Positions 5,548 to 60,378 of a stretch of 64,000 nucleotides of DNA are shown here, piece by piece. The stretch is from a virus (Duplodnaviria; Caudoviricetes). The stretch lies in IMG/VR virus record IMGVR_UViG_3300024259_001623; one strand, written 5' to 3'. Numbering within the stretch: position 1 is the stretch's first letter; each line of letters starts with the position of its first letter. The position numbers and the translations under genes were made by a program. The notes below the pieces were generated by a model that saw nothing but the letters and a program-made list of their open reading frames with translations, searched no databases and was not told the DNA's origin.

Positions 5548-5606
5548 AGGAACAACTCCTTTCCAGCTTGACAGGCTGATTTAATACATACTTTTATATC
5601 GGAAAA

Positions 5607-5963
5607 TTATAGACATGTTGAGAGATTGGCGACTAGCCCCAATAATTTATTATTGATATGATGGATATCACTTGCATCTAAAGAGTTAACAAAATTTATT
5701 GAATGTTGAATTATTTCTTTATCGCAGCCTGTGCTTTTGATATTGCCATCTCTTAATTTATATGTATACACTTTTAAAACATTTGCTAATGAATGCATTT
5801 GATTCATTACTTTTAATACTTTTGGATAATCATTATTTGTATTTGCATCACCATACGCATCTGTCAATTCCATAATCCGCTTGGCTGTTGATATTATCCA
5901 CTTTTCTGCTGAGGGGATATTAGCATCCTGTGCCGTTTTATACCATGATATTATTTTTCTCAA
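5607..5963 (-). CDS. Hypothetical protein with a WYKTAQ leader
   Basis: N-terminus MRKIISWYKTAQ. Confidence 0.75.
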   Translation of the reverse strand: MRKIISWYKTAQDANIPSAEKWIISTAKRIMELTDAYGDANTNNDYPKVLKVMNQMHSLANVLKVYTYKLRDGNIKSTGCDKEIIQHSINFVNSLDASDIHHINNKLLGLVANLSTCL

Positions 5964-6004
5964 ATTTATTTTTCCAATAGTGAGAATGCGTTATCTCTTT
6001 TTAT

Positions 6005-21761: not shown

Positions 21762-22424
21762 TTCTTTTTCAACCAGCAAATCAAGTCGATAATCCCTAAA
21801 AAGACAATCGTTAAGGAAATTGCCAGTCCTTTTTCTAGTGGAGTCATTCCCAGATCCTTTCGGCTTTTTTTATTTTGATTTATTTTTCAGGGAACGTTAC
21901 TGATTAGCCTTTTCATTGGCCTTTGTTTGTGCTCGGAGTAATTTTTGCATAAGATTCGCTGGCACCGGAGTCTTTCCGAGAGCATTGATAAAATCATCCA
22001 AAGCATCAGAAAGGTTACTAACCGATATCTGCAAGTCGTCGAGGTCTTGCAGTCGGTCGCCGATTCTTGTTTCTCGTTCGATAATATCGGCAAGTTGTGT
22101 TCTACGCCATTCTCTATCTGTTGGAACATCTGGCGAGCCATCAGGGAGCATTTGATCGAAAACAAATTTTTCGACCTTTATTCCTGCAACGTTGGCAAAA
22201 TGTGACTTAAGCATTTTTATCTCCGTTTGTTTTCTTCGCCGGGAATCTTTTGCCATCTGGATAATACCATCTGGCTTCTTTCCCTACTGAGACAAGATAG
22301 ACAACAGACGGGCAGGGAGAACCGTATCTAGGTTCTGTCTTGACAATTGTTCCTCTCCCATCTTCTGTTCTAAAACGTACATGCTTCATCCTGATATGAA
22401 AACTCCTTACTTATTCAGGGATAA

Positions 22425-22516
22425 CTGGGCCGGTAGGAGTCGAACCTACAAACGAAGGATGCGCAACCCTTCAACCGCCTCTCCGGCGGCGCGTCTGCCA
22501 ATTCCGCCACAACCCA
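22425..22516 (-). tRNA. Atypical class II tRNA (Leu-GAG-like)
   Basis: Cloverleaf with a Leu-type D arm, T arm GTAGG-TTCGACT-CCTAC and a long variable arm; loop CGGAGAG lacks U33; G73. Confidence 0.6.
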
Positions 22517-22771
22517 ATAAAAAAGAGGAAAGGGTGAAAGGAACTACTCCGTCACTTTCTGCCCGCTTGCCTTCAGGCCCCTTTCCTTTTCGCAAAAACA
22601 TTTATCTCATGGCCGCAACCAAACGTTGTATGAGATAAAGAGGTCTTTGCTTGGATGCTCAATCCATTCTGTAGCAATTTTATCATTCTGGTCAGGGACT
22701 CTCGGCAACACCAATCCGGGCCGCAACAAGGCCGGGAATCCCTCTAAACCTTGCTGCGACCCTAGATATTG

Positions 22772-27512: not shown

Positions 27513-27656
27513 TTTAGGCTCAAGTATTGGACTTGTCAGCGCTCTGCCAACTGAGCTATATCCCGGCTTTGCCGAGATAGCTGGACTCGAACCAGCGACC
27601 TTTGCATATCCAATAACGACTTGCCGCAACAGGACTATGCCTGCCCTTGGCCTAAA
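27513..27656 (-). ncRNA. Circularly permuted tRNA-like RNA (YrlA-type Y RNA topology)
   Basis: Order is T arm, then acceptor stem closed by an AAA loop, then D arm. It is enclosed by the helices TATTGGA/TCCAATA, CAAG/CTTG and TTTAGGC/GCCTAAA. Confidence 0.75.
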
Positions 27657-30135: not shown

Positions 30136-31431
30136 TGTTGTTCCCTTTCTACTCGTAATGATTTAATCTTCAATATCAGGGAGATCGTGCTGGAACTCCT
30201 GATCCAAGAAAAGGTCAAAAGAATCATAAGAATCTGGCTCCTCCCAAAAGTAGGGGCATCCATCGCAAGTCGGACGGTCACAAGTCATACAAGCATCGTT
30301 TTCGCCATGAGCCATTTTCTTACCCTTTATGTTGGTTGTTGATTGCCTACAGAAGAGGGTTTATTCCCGCTTTAATCAGGGAAAGATCAGTGATAGCATC
30401 GTTAAGATACTCATATTCGATATAGTCGCCGTCTGGAGCGTGTCGTTTGCTGCTCAGACGGAACATCTTACCGCAACGCTCGAAAGTATAGCCTTGCTTC
30501 CTGGCTCGCTTAGAGAGCCTCTTAAAATCATTGTCCACTTTCATCTTCCTTAGTTGTTTCCGATTTGACTATGCTTCTATAGGCATCTATTTGCCCTTTA
30601 ACGTATCCCTTTTGTTCTGCTAAAATCAGGGAACCATTCTCTTTTTCGCATTTATCATATCCTTCATGCCAGGCGATATTTGTAAAGCATCCAAACGCTC
30701 CAGCAGTAACCATAAGAAAAATAACGAAAAACACAAGTCCCCAACCGTCATCAGACGGAGCAGATACGCATGTCATGGATAACAATACCAGAAGCAACGC
30801 CAAAATGATGAAGAAAATTCCTAGCCCTAACATGGTAAATCCTTTCTATTTTCAGGGAGTTTTTAATCCGTCAGTATCTCTTTCTTTTTTTCGATACCTT
30901 CTCTATATCGTTCAATACGCCTAAACTCTATTTTCGAAACTTCTCCATCGTTCAAAGCATCTTCGATTTTTTCTTTGAGTTCAGGGAATTCTGCTTGCCA
31001 TTCTTTCAGAGAATCGTATTGAGACTCGGAAATTTCTTGACCATCCAAAACTGCGCCAACAAGAAGCAACGTGACCAAAGTTACGACAACAAGTGCGCAA
31101 CTCATTGCAAATTCTTCCATTTTATTATTCCTTCTTTTCCCAAGCATCATTGTTAGAGGATTCTTTTTGTTCGTAATAAATCTCGCCATTGAGTGCATCA
31201 ACTTGGCCAGACTTATAACCATTTTCCCATACATGAGTTGTGAGCATTAAGATGGGGGTCACAAAGCACAATACTGCAAACAGGAATGGGACTAATGCCA
31301 GTCCATTCGGCTCTTTTTCATCAAAGAGAATGCAACTCCCGACTGCAAACAGCATACAGCCAAAAAGAAACATGATTGAGTAAACAACAACTGCTATCGT
31401 GAACATTATTTTTCCTTTCAATGTTACGTAA

Positions 31432-31573
31432 TACCCCTGGCAGGACTCGAACCCGAAACTCCACCATCATACATTTTCTTTATTGGAAGGCAGGGAGGTC
31501 CAGTCTCTAGCTTCCCATAATCATTATGTATTCTGGACATACGGTGTTGTTTTGCCAATTAAACTACAGGGGC
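31432..31573 (-). ncRNA. tRNA-like RNA with an insertion of about 69 nt in the anticodon arm
   Basis: Acceptor GCCCCTG/CAGGGGT, D arm GTTT/AAAC, T loop TTCGAGT, stem CACCGT/ATGGTG enclosing a structured insert. Confidence 0.75.
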
Positions 31574-32932
31574 GTGTGCTGTCCCATATACCGGCCCTAT
31601 CTCAATCTATTTTCTTTTACTCAGGGACAGCTATGAATAAAAGATCTTACTGAGACAGGGGAGAGTTTCCATTTTGGCCCAGGATTTTCAAACGATACTC
31701 TCCAAACGTATCCTTATCGGGCTGTCCTTAACGCATTATACTAGCTCCTTTCATTATTAGTAGCTTATATTATTGCTCTTACGTTAAGTATTAATTTCGT
31801 GTGTTGTTTCAGGGAGAACTACTTAATCAGGTATAGATTTTCTCACCTTTATCCCAAAGATTCCCCTTGGCTTCTGATTTAATTGCAATAGCTTTAATCC
31901 ATTGTTGACGATGCTCTTCGCCGGAGAAAATCGATGGCATAGATTGTTTATCGCTAATCCGGATTATAGTAGCATGACGACCAATAGACAATGACTCAGT
32001 TTTTACCCTAAACCCACAAGATTTTAGTTCTTTACGAAAATCTTTAAGTTCCATTGTTAGTCCCCTTCATCTCTAATCGATTTCGTGTATTATCTCAGGG
32101 AGAACTACTTACCGCAATTGAAGCAAGCCTCTTGTCCCATTTCTTCGCTGTAGTAGCCTTCCTCTGGCAGCGGCTTAATCCACTCTACCATGCCCATCCT
32201 CAGAAACTTAGGGATTTCTTTGGTGATACCATTAGCTGAGTTGGGAGCTTGGATGATAGCTCCGCAAGTCTCGCATTTCGTGGTGTTGAAGAATGCGACC
32301 CTCTTGTCGTTGATTCTCTTGAAATACTTATACATGTTGAGGCTCCTTGGTTAAGTTACCTCTATGGATTTGTTGGTTGTGTTTCAGGGACTTTATCTGT
32401 TCGCATCCCAGGCAGAATAGAGATGGATAATCCACCCCATTAAAACACACCAAAGAGCTACTGCCACAACAAAATGACAAATCGCTTTAATTGGATGCCC
32501 AGCCAATAATTGACCTAAACCAGGGATAATAAATGAAAGAATAGCGGGGAGACACCCCCCATGTTTTTGATCTTTACCCGAATTATTAATATAAATATCG
32601 CCCAATTGCATTTCTCCTTAGTTAAGTGATTTTTTAAAATACCTCGTTTCGTTCGTCCCATTGCATACAGAAAATAGTAATTTTTAAGCGACTGGTATTC
32701 TATATATCCAATCCCCACCAGTCCAAAAGTTCAGAAGCTCAAGAGCATCTGCCCGATTCCTACAATAAACAAAATTCATGCCGCTTTTATCTGTCGGAAT
32801 ATATCTCCATTTATAATCGAAACGTATCAGACCTAAGTGTTCTGCGGCGATTCGATTTCTTGTGTAGGATATTTGGTGTTCTGTTAGCATACTCTTACCA
32901 ATCTTTTCTACATTTTCAGGGGGAAATTTTAA

Positions 32933-38642: not shown

Positions 38643-38893
38643 ATGGGCGGGCTGGGAATCGAACCCCGCGACCTTCTTCCGAAAGCATTACGATATTGCC
38701 TTGTCTTACAGGGAATTAAACCCTGGTCTCCTGGCCTAATGCCAGGTATCTTCCATGCAATCTGATACCCTTGGTAAGTCGATCAAACTTTGGTAGAGTA
38801 GTGTTGCACAGTTAGCCACTCATTAGACGATCAGACGCAATAATCTCCTAGGACTACTTTCCGGATGCTGTTATGCCAAATAACTTCCGCCCA
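38643..38893 (-). ncRNA. 251-nt tRNA-like RNA with an insertion of about 170-180 nt
   Basis: Acceptor TGGGCGG/CCGCCCA, D arm GTTAT/ATAAC, stem AGCAT/ATGCT, T loop TTCGATT; starts 6 nt after tRNA-Lys. Confidence 0.7.
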
Positions 38894-38899
38894 GAAAAA

Positions 38900-38972
38900 T
38901 ACGCCCACCAGGACTCGAACCTGGAACCGCCACATTAAAAGTGTGATGCTCTGCCAATTGAGCTATAGGCGC
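38900..38972 (-). tRNA. tRNA-Lys (TTT)
   Basis: Loop CTTTTAA, canonical cloverleaf. Confidence 0.93.
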
Positions 38973-40206
38973 ATAAAGAACAAGAGGGCTTATCTTCCAG
39001 CCAGGATTACAACGTCAGTCAATCTAGCTCTTGTTCTCATTAGGAATTCAACATCAAACTACAGGGATTACCAAGTAGACGGAATAGAGTTGGAAGACGC
39101 ATATGCCTTCTTATACTCAGCCGGCAACTCATCCCAAGGAACGATCTTATGCGTTTGCGTTTGTTCATCGTAATACTTGTACGTCTTTTCAGGGGTCTTT
39201 TTCTCATCTTCATACGAAACGGTGGGTATATTGATAGCTACCATTCCAGCAGGGGCCTCTTGTCCCATCGGACTATTCGGTTCCCTACGAGCAATGATAT
39301 TGGCAGTTTCGCCAAGGCCCATTGAATGAGTCACAGGAGCCTTCATAACCTCTAGGGTTGTAGAAGACGTAAAGGTGAGCCAGGCCCCTTTGCCTGTTTC
39401 AAGATGCGTACCGGCACAACCACCAAGAGCAATAGAGAACAAAACCATAGTGAGCATTGCAGAGCGTTTCATCGTTTTTCTCCTTCTATGAGCGATTGAC
39501 TCATGAGCATTTTACGAGTTATTGCAGGGATATGATCAGCAGTCGCCTTTGTGTAGGTCCAATTTGGCCTTACGACGTTTTTTTCTGTTGGAAGGCTTTC
39601 CGCCCCAGGAATTGGAACGAAGTCGTCCTGACGCCCTTACAACGTCTAATTCGGCCTCTCTGGCCGCTCGACGCAGGGACTTGACCAATTTCTGCTGTTC
39701 CGTAAGTTTCTTTTTCTTAGCCATAATAATCCTTCTTTCGTTTTACTATGACAATTTCCTTCATTTTATCAGGGAAGATATACCTGATCTGAATAGCACC
39801 AATGCCCATTAGCCAATATAAAAACCACCTTATTGGCCCTAATGTCATCTTCATCTACTTCATCAACATTAGTGCCGCACTTTGTACGAGGATAATCGGT
39901 GATCTGCATTTGTTCTATCTCAGTTCTACCGAAACGAGTATGGATTTCGTCGCCGATTTTAATCATTTTGTTATCCCAAGGCTATTTGAGGATCATACCA
40001 ATACGCAGTAAATTCCTTTGCCTTCATGTGTCTGGCCCATAAAGGCTTTTGCCAAACAAACGAAGGTATCCATTCTTCATCTTTTTGACAATAGCTGGCA
40101 GGGACATTCTTGCAATAATGATCCTTATCAATCAAGAAATAACGCCGATCAAGAAGAAAACATCGGCCAGTTTGATTATGTCTAATAACAACATAAACAT
40201 TCGACA

Positions 40207-45481: not shown

Positions 45482-45529
45482 ATACTATTATATATAAAAT
45501 ATTTTCCGCAGTCAGGGACTGTGATAATA

Positions 45530-47629: not shown

Positions 47630-48916
47630 TTACTTTTTGAACTCGATCAAGAAAACCGGATTGACTTGATTAGTCTTATAAACAATCATCTCATTGTTTT
47701 GTACGCCGCTTCTTCCAGCCTTCGCAAAAGTAGAATTGTAACCGCTCTTAGGGAAACTGCGCCCATAAGTAGCTGGGATATATTCTTTACCCATAGCAAC
47801 TTGACATAAGAACATAAAGCAGTTGCTATCTCTTGAGCCGCCCCAATATCCATAAGCATAATTCAAGCTTTTAGTGGATTGGTCAGAAAAATAAACGCCG
47901 TTTCCATACATTCGCCCCGTGCAATGAGAAGCATTAGACGGCGGAATTACAAAACCACCTTTAAGGATAGACAGCAAATTACTAGCCCTAGTTCCATGCC
48001 ATAAATCTCTTACATTGCCAATCTTCTTACCCTTTGCATTGAAGGCATCCAGCATGAAAGCGATTGATACAGAATAGACCCTATGGACCTTCAAAGAATG
48101 ACAAACATGCATTCTATTTCTAGTCTGTCCATACAGTTTCTTGATCCGATCAACAACTTTGCCTTCAGTTACAACATCCATAGCAACATTGAAAAGCTTC
48201 TTTTCGGCGACAACAACCTTCTTGCCTTTGTCATCTTTAGCCCCAGACATTGCAGAAGCATAGGACGATTCAAGACCATCCAAAACATCATTCTGCTTTT
48301 GGACAGCCGCAAGGTCAGGCAAGAACCCCTCAACAGTAAGCTTTCTGCCTACTTCTTGGGGAATAAGCATAAGGTAATCTTCTACATGACGCCTAGTAGA
48401 AGAAAGACCAAACTTTTGCTTTGCTACTGCATCGCCAAGAGAAGCCAAAATCTTTCTGGCTTCATCAATACTGTCTTTGGTAACAATGCCTAACGGTGTC
48501 TTAAAAAGACCGCTATCAACATCAAAAGTAATCTTACCACCAGTTGCATCATAGATATTATGAGCATTTACATCGGTAAGATACTCAATAAGCTTAACAA
48601 CAACTGGATTAGTAGACTGAATCTGTCGCTTGGCAATATCTTTGAGATTGCCTTTAGCAACAACTTTACTAGACGTAGATCCGCCACTATCCAAAGTAGC
48701 TACCGCACGATAGCCTTTATTCTCTTTTTCTCGGGCTTTCTTTTCAGCGTAACGCAGTCCAACACCAGAGAAGGTCTTACTTTGCATACCTTTACCGACT
48801 CTCCCCCATTCGCATAGAACATCGTCATTATCATATAAAGTATATTGCCAAACCTTATTAGAATTCACTTCAATAGAACTCAAAACAAACTTCTTAGTTT
48901 CTACCACGTTGGGCAT
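47630..48916 (-). CDS. WGR-domain poly(ADP-ribose) polymerase-like protein
   Basis: EWGRVG (WGR); LWHGT, GNGVYFSD...KSLNY and NNEMIVY give the H-Y-E triad. Confidence 0.9.
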   Translation of the reverse strand: MPNVVETKKFVLSSIEVNSNKVWQYTLYDNDDVLCEWGRVGKGMQSKTFSGVGLRYAEKKAREKENKGYRAVATLDSGGSTSSKVVAKGNLKDIAKRQIQSTNPVVVKLIEYLTDVNAHNIYDATGGKITFDVDSGLFKTPLGIVTKDSIDEARKILASLGDAVAKQKFGLSSTRRHVEDYLMLIPQEVGRKLTVEGFLPDLAAVQKQNDVLDGLESSYASAMSGAKDDKGKKVVVAEKKLFNVAMDVVTEGKVVDRIKKLYGQTRNRMHVCHSLKVHRVYSVSIAFMLDAFNAKGKKIGNVRDLWHGTRASNLLSILKGGFVIPPSNASHCTGRMYGNGVYFSDQSTKSLNYAYGYWGGSRDSNCFMFLCQVAMGKEYIPATYGRSFPKSGYNSTFAKAGRSGVQNNEMIVYKTNQVNPVFLIEFKK

Positions 48917-49688
48917 TTGTAATTTCCTCTATAAAACAGAAAGTGTAATTTTTACATTTTCTTTTTCTTCTAATACTATTTGATATTGCTGAAGCAGTTA
49001 CCCCTAATCTCTCAGCCGCCTTGACTATACCATCAAAGACTTCACCAGTCTCTACACAAAATACACTTTTGAGCGACCAGACAGGGACTTTTCCAATTTT
49101 TGCTTGGCTCATTTTTCTTTTGTGTTCTTCTGACCATAATGAGGATGTTTCAGTCTTATCTTTTTTTATAGAAAACCATCGTCTCTTTGCTGCTTTAGAC
49201 AATTTTTGCTTATGTTCTTTTGTGAATTTTTTATTTTTCTTACCTAAAGAAATTTTATTGCGCCATTCTTTACTTCTGTTTTGTTGAGCTTGACGCATTT
49301 TTTCTTTAGTTTCTTCTGTTCTTTTTGTGCCTCTCAAAGATTTTGAAATCTTCTTTTTTGTCTCTTCAGACATATTTTTTCTGTCAGCGTTTAAAGCGTT
49401 AAATCCGAACTCTCTATCTAATGCTTTAAAATATTCTATCCAAAATTCTTCCCTCTTTAGTAAATCACTTTTGTCACATAGTTCTATTATACCAAAAATA
49501 AAACTTTTTTCTCCGTATTTGTTCCAAGAATTTTGTAAGTGCTGACTATGATGCTGATTGTTATTTAATCTGCAACGATGACCAGACCATCGTTTGCTGA
49601 TCCAAACAGCACTCCCGACATACATTTTGCCATTATCTGAACATTTTATCCCGTAAATACCAGTTTCTTTCATAATAAACCTCCACAT
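48894..49688 (-). CDS. GIY-YIG homing endonuclease with NUMOD3-type repeats
   Basis: GIYGIK...YVGSA...RW..H; SEETKKKIS, TEETKEKMR, SEEHKRKMS repeats. Confidence 0.9.
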   Translation of the reverse strand: MWRFIMKETGIYGIKCSDNGKMYVGSAVWISKRWSGHRCRLNNNQHHSQHLQNSWNKYGEKSFIFGIIELCDKSDLLKREEFWIEYFKALDREFGFNALNADRKNMSEETKKKISKSLRGTKRTEETKEKMRQAQQNRSKEWRNKISLGKKNKKFTKEHKQKLSKAAKRRWFSIKKDKTETSSLWSEEHKRKMSQAKIGKVPVWSLKSVFCVETGEVFDGIVKAAERLGVTASAISNSIRRKRKCKNYTFCFIEEITNAQRGRN

Positions 49689-56479: not shown

Positions 56480-57328
56480 CTAAAATGCAACACAATAATC
56501 TGTTTTTTCGAGGAATTTTTTCAATTTACGTAAACCGTTTTCCTCATGGTGTTTAGCCCACGGCCTGCTTACTCCAAGCTCTTTACCAACATCAGAATAA
56601 GTGGGTTTCTTTCCATCAAAAAAGTATCTCATTTCAACAGCGACTCTTTCTTGGTAAGTTAGTCCAGCAGAATTATCTTTTAATGCTGTTCTAATAACAT
56701 CTATTAACTTACTATAATCGGTGGATAGATCTTCTACATCTTCTCCATCTTCAGTGTCATAAGAGACAGGGAACTTTTCTTCTCTCTCTTGTTTCTTCTT
56801 AATTTCTCCGGCAAAAGTTTTTATAATAGACCAAGTTGCATAAGTCGAAAACTTATTGCCTCTAGAAATATCGAATGTCTTAATAGCTCTCAGTAATGCT
56901 TCATTACCGACAGATACCATATCTTCATAATCTAAACCACTCTTCAAAAATCTCTTTGTTGTATTTATGACTAGTGCTAGATTATATTCTACTAACTTCT
57001 TTTGCATTGCTAATACAACTTTATACCAATGCATTATCTCTTGTTTAGCTGTATCCGTGAGTCCATCAGGATATGACTCTTTTACCTGAGAAATTCTTTT
57101 TCGCGCTAAATTATAACGCAAAAATACATTCCGTTCTTCTTCCCGACTTAATACAACAATATTTTTAGACGTTCTAACAGGAAGATCACAATTGAAAAAC
57201 CAAGATACATCCACATCCTCTGGAAGGTCTTGGTTCTCAATGCGTTCAGAAATTGTAGAATCCTCAAAATCAGGATGGTCTACGTATCTATTCTGTTCTA
57301 AAATATTCTTTAAGTCTTCTAGTTCCAT
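56480..57328 (-). CDS. Sigma-70 family RNA polymerase sigma factor
   Basis: Region 2 NLALV...EDMVSVGNEALLRAIKTFDISRGNKFSTYATW; region 4 TYSDVGKELGVSR. Confidence 0.9.
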   Translation of the reverse strand: MELEDLKNILEQNRYVDHPDFEDSTISERIENQDLPEDVDVSWFFNCDLPVRTSKNIVVLSREEERNVFLRYNLARKRISQVKESYPDGLTDTAKQEIMHWYKVVLAMQKKLVEYNLALVINTTKRFLKSGLDYEDMVSVGNEALLRAIKTFDISRGNKFSTYATWSIIKTFAGEIKKKQEREEKFPVSYDTEDGEDVEDLSTDYSKLIDVIRTALKDNSAGLTYQERVAVEMRYFFDGKKPTYSDVGKELGVSRPWAKHHEENGLRKLKKFLEKTDYCVAF

Positions 57329-60297: not shown

Positions 60298-60372
60298 GGG
60301 CTACCGCCCTACTCTCGGACTTAAACCGACAATCGTATGTCTACGTGCGTCTACCAATTCCGCCACCCGCCT
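60298..60372 (-). pseudogene. Degenerate Leu-like tRNA remnant
   Basis: GGTGGCGGAATTGGTAGACGC D arm, a 4-nt-loop hairpin in place of the anticodon arm, a T-like arm, and no acceptor pairing. Confidence 0.55.
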
Positions 60373-60378
60373 ATATAA

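Follow-up and report, generated by a model that had tools for sequence, protein, structure and literature searches.

A tRNA-like gene with an enlarged anticodon arm in a huge marine phage, probably one of several non-decoding tRNA look-alikes

The genome of a huge marine phage contains a gene in which the body of a tRNA is kept and the anticodon loop has been replaced. The gene, hereafter the element, is 142 nt long and lies on the minus strand at positions 31432-31573 of the 64,000-nt stretch of viral DNA that was analyzed (the window). The Rfam tRNA model RF00005 spans it from end to end (36.2 bits, above the gathering score of 29, model positions 1-71), and it has the cloverleaf stems and the elbow nucleotides of a tRNA, while it lacks a 7-nt anticodon loop in which U33 precedes a natural anticodon followed by a purine at position 37. 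According to cmscan, the two strands of the anticodon stem are separated by 77 nt (31466-31542, minus strand) where the model has 7, which corresponds to the place of the loop plus an insert of 70 nt; an initial annotation of this DNA, made from the letters alone, had put the insert correctly in the place of the anticodon loop and had given its length as roughly 69 nt. ARAGORN misses the element in its default mode and finds it in intron mode only, as a tRNA-Ile(UAU). The element does not encode CCA, and neither do the normal tRNA genes in the window. The source is a phage of at least 434 kb, as proteins of the window are found on contigs of up to 434,625 bp. The stretch is present in 24 seawater DNA runs, in a listing from which RNA runs are absent, and no similar DNA was found among known phage records.

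The tRNA body is built from two separate halves. The 5′ half (31543-31573, minus strand, from cmscan and the sequence) consists of the acceptor strand GCCCCUG, U8 and A9, the D arm GUUU-AAUUGGCA-AAAC, A26 and the anticodon-stem strand ACACC. The 3′ half (31432-31465, minus strand, from cmscan) consists of GGUGG, the variable loop AGUU, the T arm UCGGG-UUCGAGU-CCUGC, the acceptor strand CAGGGGU and the discriminator A73. The acceptor, D and T arms had all been described as intact at the outset, and for the acceptor stem (7/7 pairs by sequence reading, G1-U72 being a wobble) and the D stem (4/4 pairs) this is the case, while the T stem forms 4/5 pairs, with U49 and C65 mismatched. The anticodon stem ACACC/GGUGG also forms 4/5 pairs, the mismatch being A27 x G43. 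All of the elbow nucleotides are present, namely U8, A14, G18, G19, A21, G53 U54 U55 C56, A58 and C61, with GGUUCGAGUCC as the T-loop. When the exons are compared with the normal tRNAs of the phage, the nearest paralogue is tRNA-Lys(UUU) at 38899-38973. Relative to this tRNA, pairs 11-24, 13-22, 31-39, 3-70 and 7-66 are changed on both sides and, judged by eye, are still paired, which indicates that the cloverleaf was kept while the sequence changed. The last 24 nt of the element are also the last 24 nt of a normal phage tRNA-Arg, and the preceding base, at position 49, differs between the two. The U49 x C65 mismatch falls on a pair that the normal phage tRNA-Arg genes, with their near-identical T arm, have kept, and this is what relaxed constraint would predict.

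The insert itself is flanked by a GTATG direct repeat that was overlooked in the initial annotation, the first copy (GUAUG in the RNA) being at 31538-31542 and the second at 31468-31472 (both minus strand, seen in the sequence and in an enumeration of excision products). Three pairings had been proposed within the insert (all positions that follow are on the minus strand). The first of these, ATACAT with ATGTAT, is a perfect 6-bp helix, P1, in both the MFE and constrained folds, with its 5′ strand at 31526-31531 and its 3′ strand at 31469-31474. The second, TGGGAAG with CTTCCA, corresponds to a helix that does exist and takes another form in the MFE fold, in which the 5′ strand UUAU-G-GGAAG (31511-31520) and the 3′ strand CUUCC-A-AUAA (31480-31489) form helices P2 and P3. 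This helix is UUAU-(G)-GGAAG / CUUCC-(A)-AUAA, so the pairing originally written down requires a bulged G. The third, between GTCCAG in a 5′ bulge and an apical CTGGAC, involves exact complements, as had been said: GUCCAG (31533-31538) lies in a 9-nt unpaired 5′ stretch and is perfectly complementary to CUGGAC (31498-31503), which is part of the 7-nt apical loop CUGGACC and is unpaired in the MFE fold. If the cloverleaf is fixed in a constrained fold, the pairs G32-U108 and U33-A107 lengthen the anticodon stem and a 9-nt 5′ bulge, AUGUCCAGA, is left.

How far these pairings amount to a structure was judged against dinucleotide shuffles. One or more perfect 6-bp helices occur in 30% of these and two in 10%. 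By a post hoc test that was defined once the pairing had been seen, only 0.4% of shuffles have at least 6 nt in the unpaired 5′ stretch that are complementary to the apical loop. The insert folds with −13.5 kcal/mol and a z of −0.8 relative to shuffles, the whole RNA also has a z of −0.8, and both are no more stable than dinucleotide shuffles. Because 1-2 nt separate the bulge from the base of the ∼20-bp arm, pairing of the 5′ tail with the tip is incompatible with the full stacked hairpin. An H-type pseudoknot that includes the UUAU-GGAAG helix could form if AUACAU/AUGUAU opens. The description of the insert as pseudoknot-capable is therefore right on paper, provided that this helix is open, while rough energies do not place such a pseudoknot ahead of the nested fold. 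The latter comes to −13.5 kcal/mol, the tail-tip helix on its own to −6.4 and the middle helices on their own to +2.0.

Can a decoding tRNA be restored from this gene? No excision of the insert restores a sensible anticodon. Excision products were enumerated and were kept if they had an anticodon stem of 5 bp with no more than one mismatch, a 7-nt loop, U33, a purine at position 37 and a normal variable loop. This left one product only, obtained by removing 70 nt anywhere across the GTATG repeat, and its loop, GUAUGAU, has U33, A37 and the anticodon AUG. Removal at 37/38 yields GUAUGUU, which bears out the earlier statement that no canonical loop results from it. We know of no normal tRNA in which the anticodon AUG occurs. 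It would read His codons, and the features of tRNA-His are absent from the element, which carries C at −1 and has A73 as its discriminator. Two other candidate readings were rejected. The tRNA-Ile(UAU) reported by ARAGORN requires G33 and a two-base spacer from the D stem to the anticodon stem, and this reading is not needed, since a normal tRNA-Ile(UAU) is already present elsewhere in the phage (L107:2479-2551, 65 bits). An anticodon-like hairpin, GUAU-GUCCAGA-AUAC, in which the loop would be U33-CCA-G37, has four A-U/G-C pairs only and faces competition from the stronger P1.

The insert does not resemble any of the RNA elements with which it was compared. A cmscan of 31300-31700 at E ≤ 10 matched no Rfam family besides tRNA in the element, the only other hit being one chance match outside it, so that the element contains no known ribozyme, group I intron, Y RNA or tmRNA; among the ribozyme families, hammerhead, twister, pistol, hatchet, HDV-like and others were all unmatched at that threshold. 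Group I introns contain a ribozyme core (P1-P9) and usually measure 200 nt or more. The judgment that the insert is too short for one stands, as it has 70 nt and the group I families were unmatched at E ≤ 10. Within the insert, the search at E ≤ 10 gave no further tRNA match, and the folds of the insert contain no T-loop-like hairpin. The YrlA model (RF02553) was unmatched at the locus at E ≤ 10, and the ends of the element sit in its acceptor stem. In addition to the 64-kb window, ∼31 kb was walked past the window's end, and no paralogue of the insert was found in the window or in the four walked loci (∼95 kb of the phage in all). A search of the window for antisense targets of the insert gave chance-level 10-mers only.

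Judged from its surroundings, the element appears to stand at the head of a transcription unit. The heptamer TCCCTGA (e.g., 45512-45518) occurs in 64 copies on the minus strand of the whole window compared to 3 on the plus strand, mostly 35-55 nt before start codons and once 30 nt before tRNA-Pro. It is found ahead of most genes and probably serves as a promoter or processing signal specific to the phage. One copy (31621-31627) lies 47 nt upstream of the element. Folding of this region (z about −2) gives a 66-nt hairpin of 12 + 11 bp (31595-31660, minus strand) that ends 22 nt upstream of the element, and its apical loop, UAGCUGUCCC, contains the start of TCCCTGA, which runs on into the stem. 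The sequence GGGACAGC, located just before the 5′ end of the element, could alternatively pair with bases of the UAGCUGUCCC loop. On the downstream side is a gene for a 93-aa membrane protein (31125-31406, minus strand, from the genes called in identical contigs and the ORF list), the start codon of which is 25 nt past the 3′ end of the element, with no terminator-like site between them. Given this spacing and the lack of a terminator, the element and the membrane-protein gene are probably co-transcribed. A scan for sigma-70 promoters and terminators gave nothing beyond chance; a sigma-70-type factor is encoded at 56480-57328 of the window.

The element is probably not alone in this phage, which would encode several tRNA look-alikes that do not decode. 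Alongside normal tRNAs, at least three further RF00005 matches above the gathering score have enlarged anticodon arms, and these are 97 nt (L109:2546-2642, 43 bits), 161 nt (L111:4371-4531, 36.2 bits) and 99 nt (L111:5304-5402, 30.5 bits) in length. There is also a 250-nt element directly after tRNA-Lys(UUU) (38643-38892, minus strand) with the tRNA-like ends GGGCGGA...GGTTCGATTCCC...CCGCCCA and with ∼175 nt in the middle, including a second T-loop-like stretch. In these siblings, as in the element, the acceptor, D and T arms are kept intact and the anticodon loop or arm is enlarged, by 20 to ∼175 nt, but the sequences of the inserts differ. The inserts are unrelated to that of the element, those of the three RF00005 matches also to each other, and their local alignment scores with the element's insert are within shuffle range. 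Repeated insertion at one site in the same phage, with the tRNA bodies left intact, argues against random damage or decay.

Several other unusual tRNA-like sequences were observed, both in this window and elsewhere. Directly following tRNA-Arg(UCU), a sequence at 60298-60378 (minus strand) has a D arm of the Leu/Ser type (GGCGGAATTGGTAGACGC), lacks a normal cloverleaf and may be another tRNA-like RNA. At 22424-22517 (minus strand), ARAGORN calls a 94-nt tRNA-Leu(GAG) that is unmatched by the Rfam tRNA model even at E ≤ 1, which makes its status as a tRNA doubtful. A tRNA-like gene from metagenomes, present on two contigs (L043, reverse complement, ∼900-1040, and L077:2719-2884), matches the element at 25 of its first 26 nt and has a branched insert of ∼66 to 91 nt that is 87% alike between the contigs, with indels that include a whole extra hairpin; L077 encodes a protein that is 54% identical over 48 aa to the product of 39775-39918 in the window. 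Large tRNA arrays of other phages contain a gene that resembles tRNA-Cys(GCA) and carries an additional arm of ∼55 nt (L001:2394-2523, L002:8331-8454, L059 and L067), and a Ro60 homologue is encoded on three of these contigs. Over-long matches to the tRNA model are also seen in IMG/VR phages with Rnl1 homologues (G003:C1:61038-61160, 123 nt, and G005:C1:278204-278314, 111 nt), with inserts that are unrelated to that of the element.

Relatives of the element outside this phage are scarce. All of the recovered copies are 100% identical, insert included, and an insert-free allele was not found among them; two contigs from different samples are 99.97% identical over 17.6 kb beyond the window's end. 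As all copies are identical, strain variation provides neither covariation nor conservation evidence for the insert. The D arm of the element is common to many normal tRNAs, and searches of IMG/VR and JGI metagenomes with exact D-arm and exon patterns gave generic tRNAs or other odd tRNA-like sequences only, while a pattern for the core of the insert had 0 matches in IMG/VR. No relatives of the neighboring proteins were found in IMG/VR, the 75-aa and 93-aa proteins giving self-matches only in a word-index search. Homologues of the 75-aa protein found by HMMER are, in the loci with DNA, in other contexts in which the tRNA is absent. An orthologue of the element was found neither with RF00005 nor with a covariance model of our own (R1) in five huge IMG/VR phages whose Rnl1 is 35-43% identical. 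There is one clear syntenic relative (P0004), in which the neighboring SprT is 63% identical and the gene layout is similar, and in which a 421-nt gap free of ORFs is found where the phage described here has the 420-nt gap that holds the element. This gap lies at 5566-5988 of a 7,150-nt contig of ENA analysis ERZ23498360, on which P0004 is the SprT homologue. A second relative (P0005) is on a short contig.

The phage also has genes that act on RNA. The window encodes a T4-type Rnl1, an Rnl2-like ligase with an OB domain, a metallophosphoesterase, a 2H phosphoesterase and a PARP, and an RNA ligase bearing an intein is encoded just beyond the window. Ro60 (TROVE) is found ∼15 kb past the window's end (L109:3829-5499) and is adjoined by two partial YrlA matches. 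The window also contains a YrlA (Y RNA-like) match at 27513-27626 (minus strand, 38.8 bits, below the gathering score of 69), and a free-standing GIY-YIG/NUMOD3 homing-endonuclease gene (48894-49688, minus strand) adjoins the PARP gene.

The reading that we prefer, although we put it at somewhat short of an even chance, is that the element is the gene for a non-decoding tRNA look-alike that is matured like a tRNA and acts through proteins that bind the tRNA body. Such an RNA would keep two parts of an Arg/Lys-type tRNA, the stack of acceptor and T arms and the elbow formed by the D and T arms, and an irregular arm of ∼77 nt would replace the 7-nt anticodon loop, so that it could not read a codon. 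It would be transcribed from the recurrent upstream motif of the phage, jointly with the gene for the small membrane protein downstream. The tRNA-like shape of its top half would let host RNase P and the enzymes that trim the 3′ ends of tRNAs excise it, with CCA then being added. The look-alike may then act via proteins that recognize the tRNA body. Our guess is that it would serve as a decoy or partner for tRNA-directed enzymes, the candidate partners being either host anticodon nucleases and similar defense enzymes or the phage's own Ro60 together with its RNA ligase and repair set, and that the arm would either make the look-alike uncleavable or supply a handle. In its favor we count the kept body, the excision that gives AUG only, the siblings, the upstream motif together with the phage's sigma factor, the RNA-repair genes and the gap of conserved size in the relative, and against it the single sequence, the shuffle-like stability, the two stem mismatches and the failure to find an orthologue in the five Rnl1-sharing phages. 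The proposal in the initial annotation of a functional RNA domain displayed on a tRNA chassis is retained as far as the chassis is concerned, in view of the kept body, the lack of a usable anticodon and the siblings. The domain part stays conjectural, as the insert matches no Rfam family at E ≤ 10, has the stability of a shuffled sequence and has no paralogue in the ∼95 kb searched.

A different explanation is that the element is a dead or dying tRNA gene, in which a phage tRNA of the Arg/Lys type took a 70-nt insertion or duplication in the anticodon loop, lost its function and now drifts undeleted. The GTATG repeat that flanks the insert resembles a target-site or slippage duplication. However, removing the repeat and the insert leaves the anticodon AUG, which is in no normal tRNA that we know of, and the repeat is therefore not the mark of a recent hit in a working gene. 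Decay would also account for the two stem mismatches, of which one affects a pair that the near-identical normal tRNA-Arg genes retain, yet the tRNA core is otherwise intact and the nucleotides that make tertiary contacts are all in place. Similarly, the insert has no RNA family, no paralogue in the ∼95 kb searched and no better fold than its shuffles, and an orthologue was not found in five related huge phages, but at least three other genes of the same design are present in this phage, the upstream motif is of the type found at genes and the size of the gap is kept in the relative. On balance, we consider it unlikely that the element is such a relic.

The insert might also be an intron that is removed by proteins. 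Lak megaphages have tRNA genes with short "enigmatic" introns that are too small for group I (Devoto et al., 2019, PMC6784885), and these introns, together with the rnaC and rnaD genes of phage T4, which are much less tRNA-like, are the closest published systems to the element. The Lak introns share with it a huge phage, a short insert in the anticodon loop, no match to an RNA family and no known splicing route (PMC6784885). In an analogous reaction, 70 nt would be cut out of the element and, after end healing, the halves would be joined by Rnl1 or the Rnl2-like ligase to give a 72-nt tRNA; the spliced form would carry the junction ...ACACCGUAUG-AUGGUGG... in an RNA of ∼72-75 nt. This is in accord with the position of the insert, which is exactly in the anticodon loop, with the one 70-nt excision that leaves a stem of 5 bp and a 7-nt loop containing U33 and A37, with the two or three RNA ligases and two phosphoesterases encoded by the phage, and with the short non-ribozyme inserts that are on record in phage tRNA genes (PMC6784885). 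The comparison with Lak fails in other respects: excision there predicts named tRNAs (Tyr GTA, Thr TGT), whereas the sole tidy excision here gives AUG; intron-less alleles exist there, whereas here all copies are identical and none is insert-free; and one of the Lak inserts may itself be a tRNA (PMC6784885), whereas that of the element is not tRNA-shaped and so offers no handle for RNase P and RNase Z. Of the properties that define a Lak-type intron, the element has the short non-ribozyme insert in the anticodon loop and lacks a recognizable tRNA on excision as well as insert-free alleles. The product with AUG would read His codons, yet it has C at −1 and A73. A credible bulge-helix-bulge motif was not found in the 142 nt, where there are minimal matches only (∼15 per orientation), none of them compatible with the cloverleaf and none with a proper inner helix. 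Moreover, the insert is not located at 37/38, and a splicing endonuclease was not seen among the scanned proteins, which represent part of the genome. The enzymatically spliced intron, offered by the initial annotation as its second option, found no positive support, and we regard splicing of this kind as very unlikely.

That the element is a cis-acting processing signal, a tRNA-shaped leader of the membrane-protein operon that is cut to set the 5′ end of the mRNA and has an arm that is free to vary, is highly improbable: it does lie between a gene-type motif and a start codon 25 nt on with no terminator between, it has a 23-bp hairpin just upstream, and its well-kept parts might be taken to be only those read by RNase P and 3′-end enzymes, but the D arm and the elbow nucleotides, which such a leader would need least, are fully kept, and other TCCCTGA units have no such element.

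A non-decoding tRNA look-alike would differ from the comparable RNAs of other phages. The T4 genes rnaC and rnaD (species 1 and 2 RNAs) are 139 and 119 nt in length and are found among tRNA genes, with their function unannotated in the record (AF158101.6). The 3′ end of rnaC has a tRNA-like T arm and acceptor. However, rnaC scores 17.5 bits with the tRNA-Sec model only and both RNAs are unmatched by the general tRNA model at E ≤ 10, whereas the element is a full cloverleaf save for its anticodon loop and scores 36.2 bits. YrlA is a tRNA-like Y RNA of bacteria and phages and is found in phages with Ro60. Like the element, YrlA (RF02553) is a tRNA mimic with an elbow, an acceptor-like stem and no decoding loop, but it is circularly permuted and ends in the Ro60-binding stem, while the element has the normal ends of a tRNA. 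By eye, the Ro60 handle of the phage's Y RNA array has no clear match in the element.

It is conceivable, if rather doubtful, that huge marine phages use the tRNA body as a carrier with swapped anticodon-arm modules, the kept acceptor, D and T arms allowing host enzymes to mature and stabilize the RNA. The element would be one such RNA, in which the bulge and tip of the arm would be a switch or a dock that functions with Ro60 and the ligases or against defenses that cut tRNAs. If the insert is spliced, it would represent an undescribed protein-dependent route of tRNA splicing in viruses that infect bacteria. The element matters chiefly as a member of the set that this phage carries, and less as a single sequence. 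The so-called tRNA scaffold trick is a laboratory means of stabilizing foreign RNAs, and the RNAs of this set, if they are made and stable, would be natural examples of it. They would also constitute a further class of phage small RNA in the contest over tRNAs between phages and the defense nucleases of bacteria.
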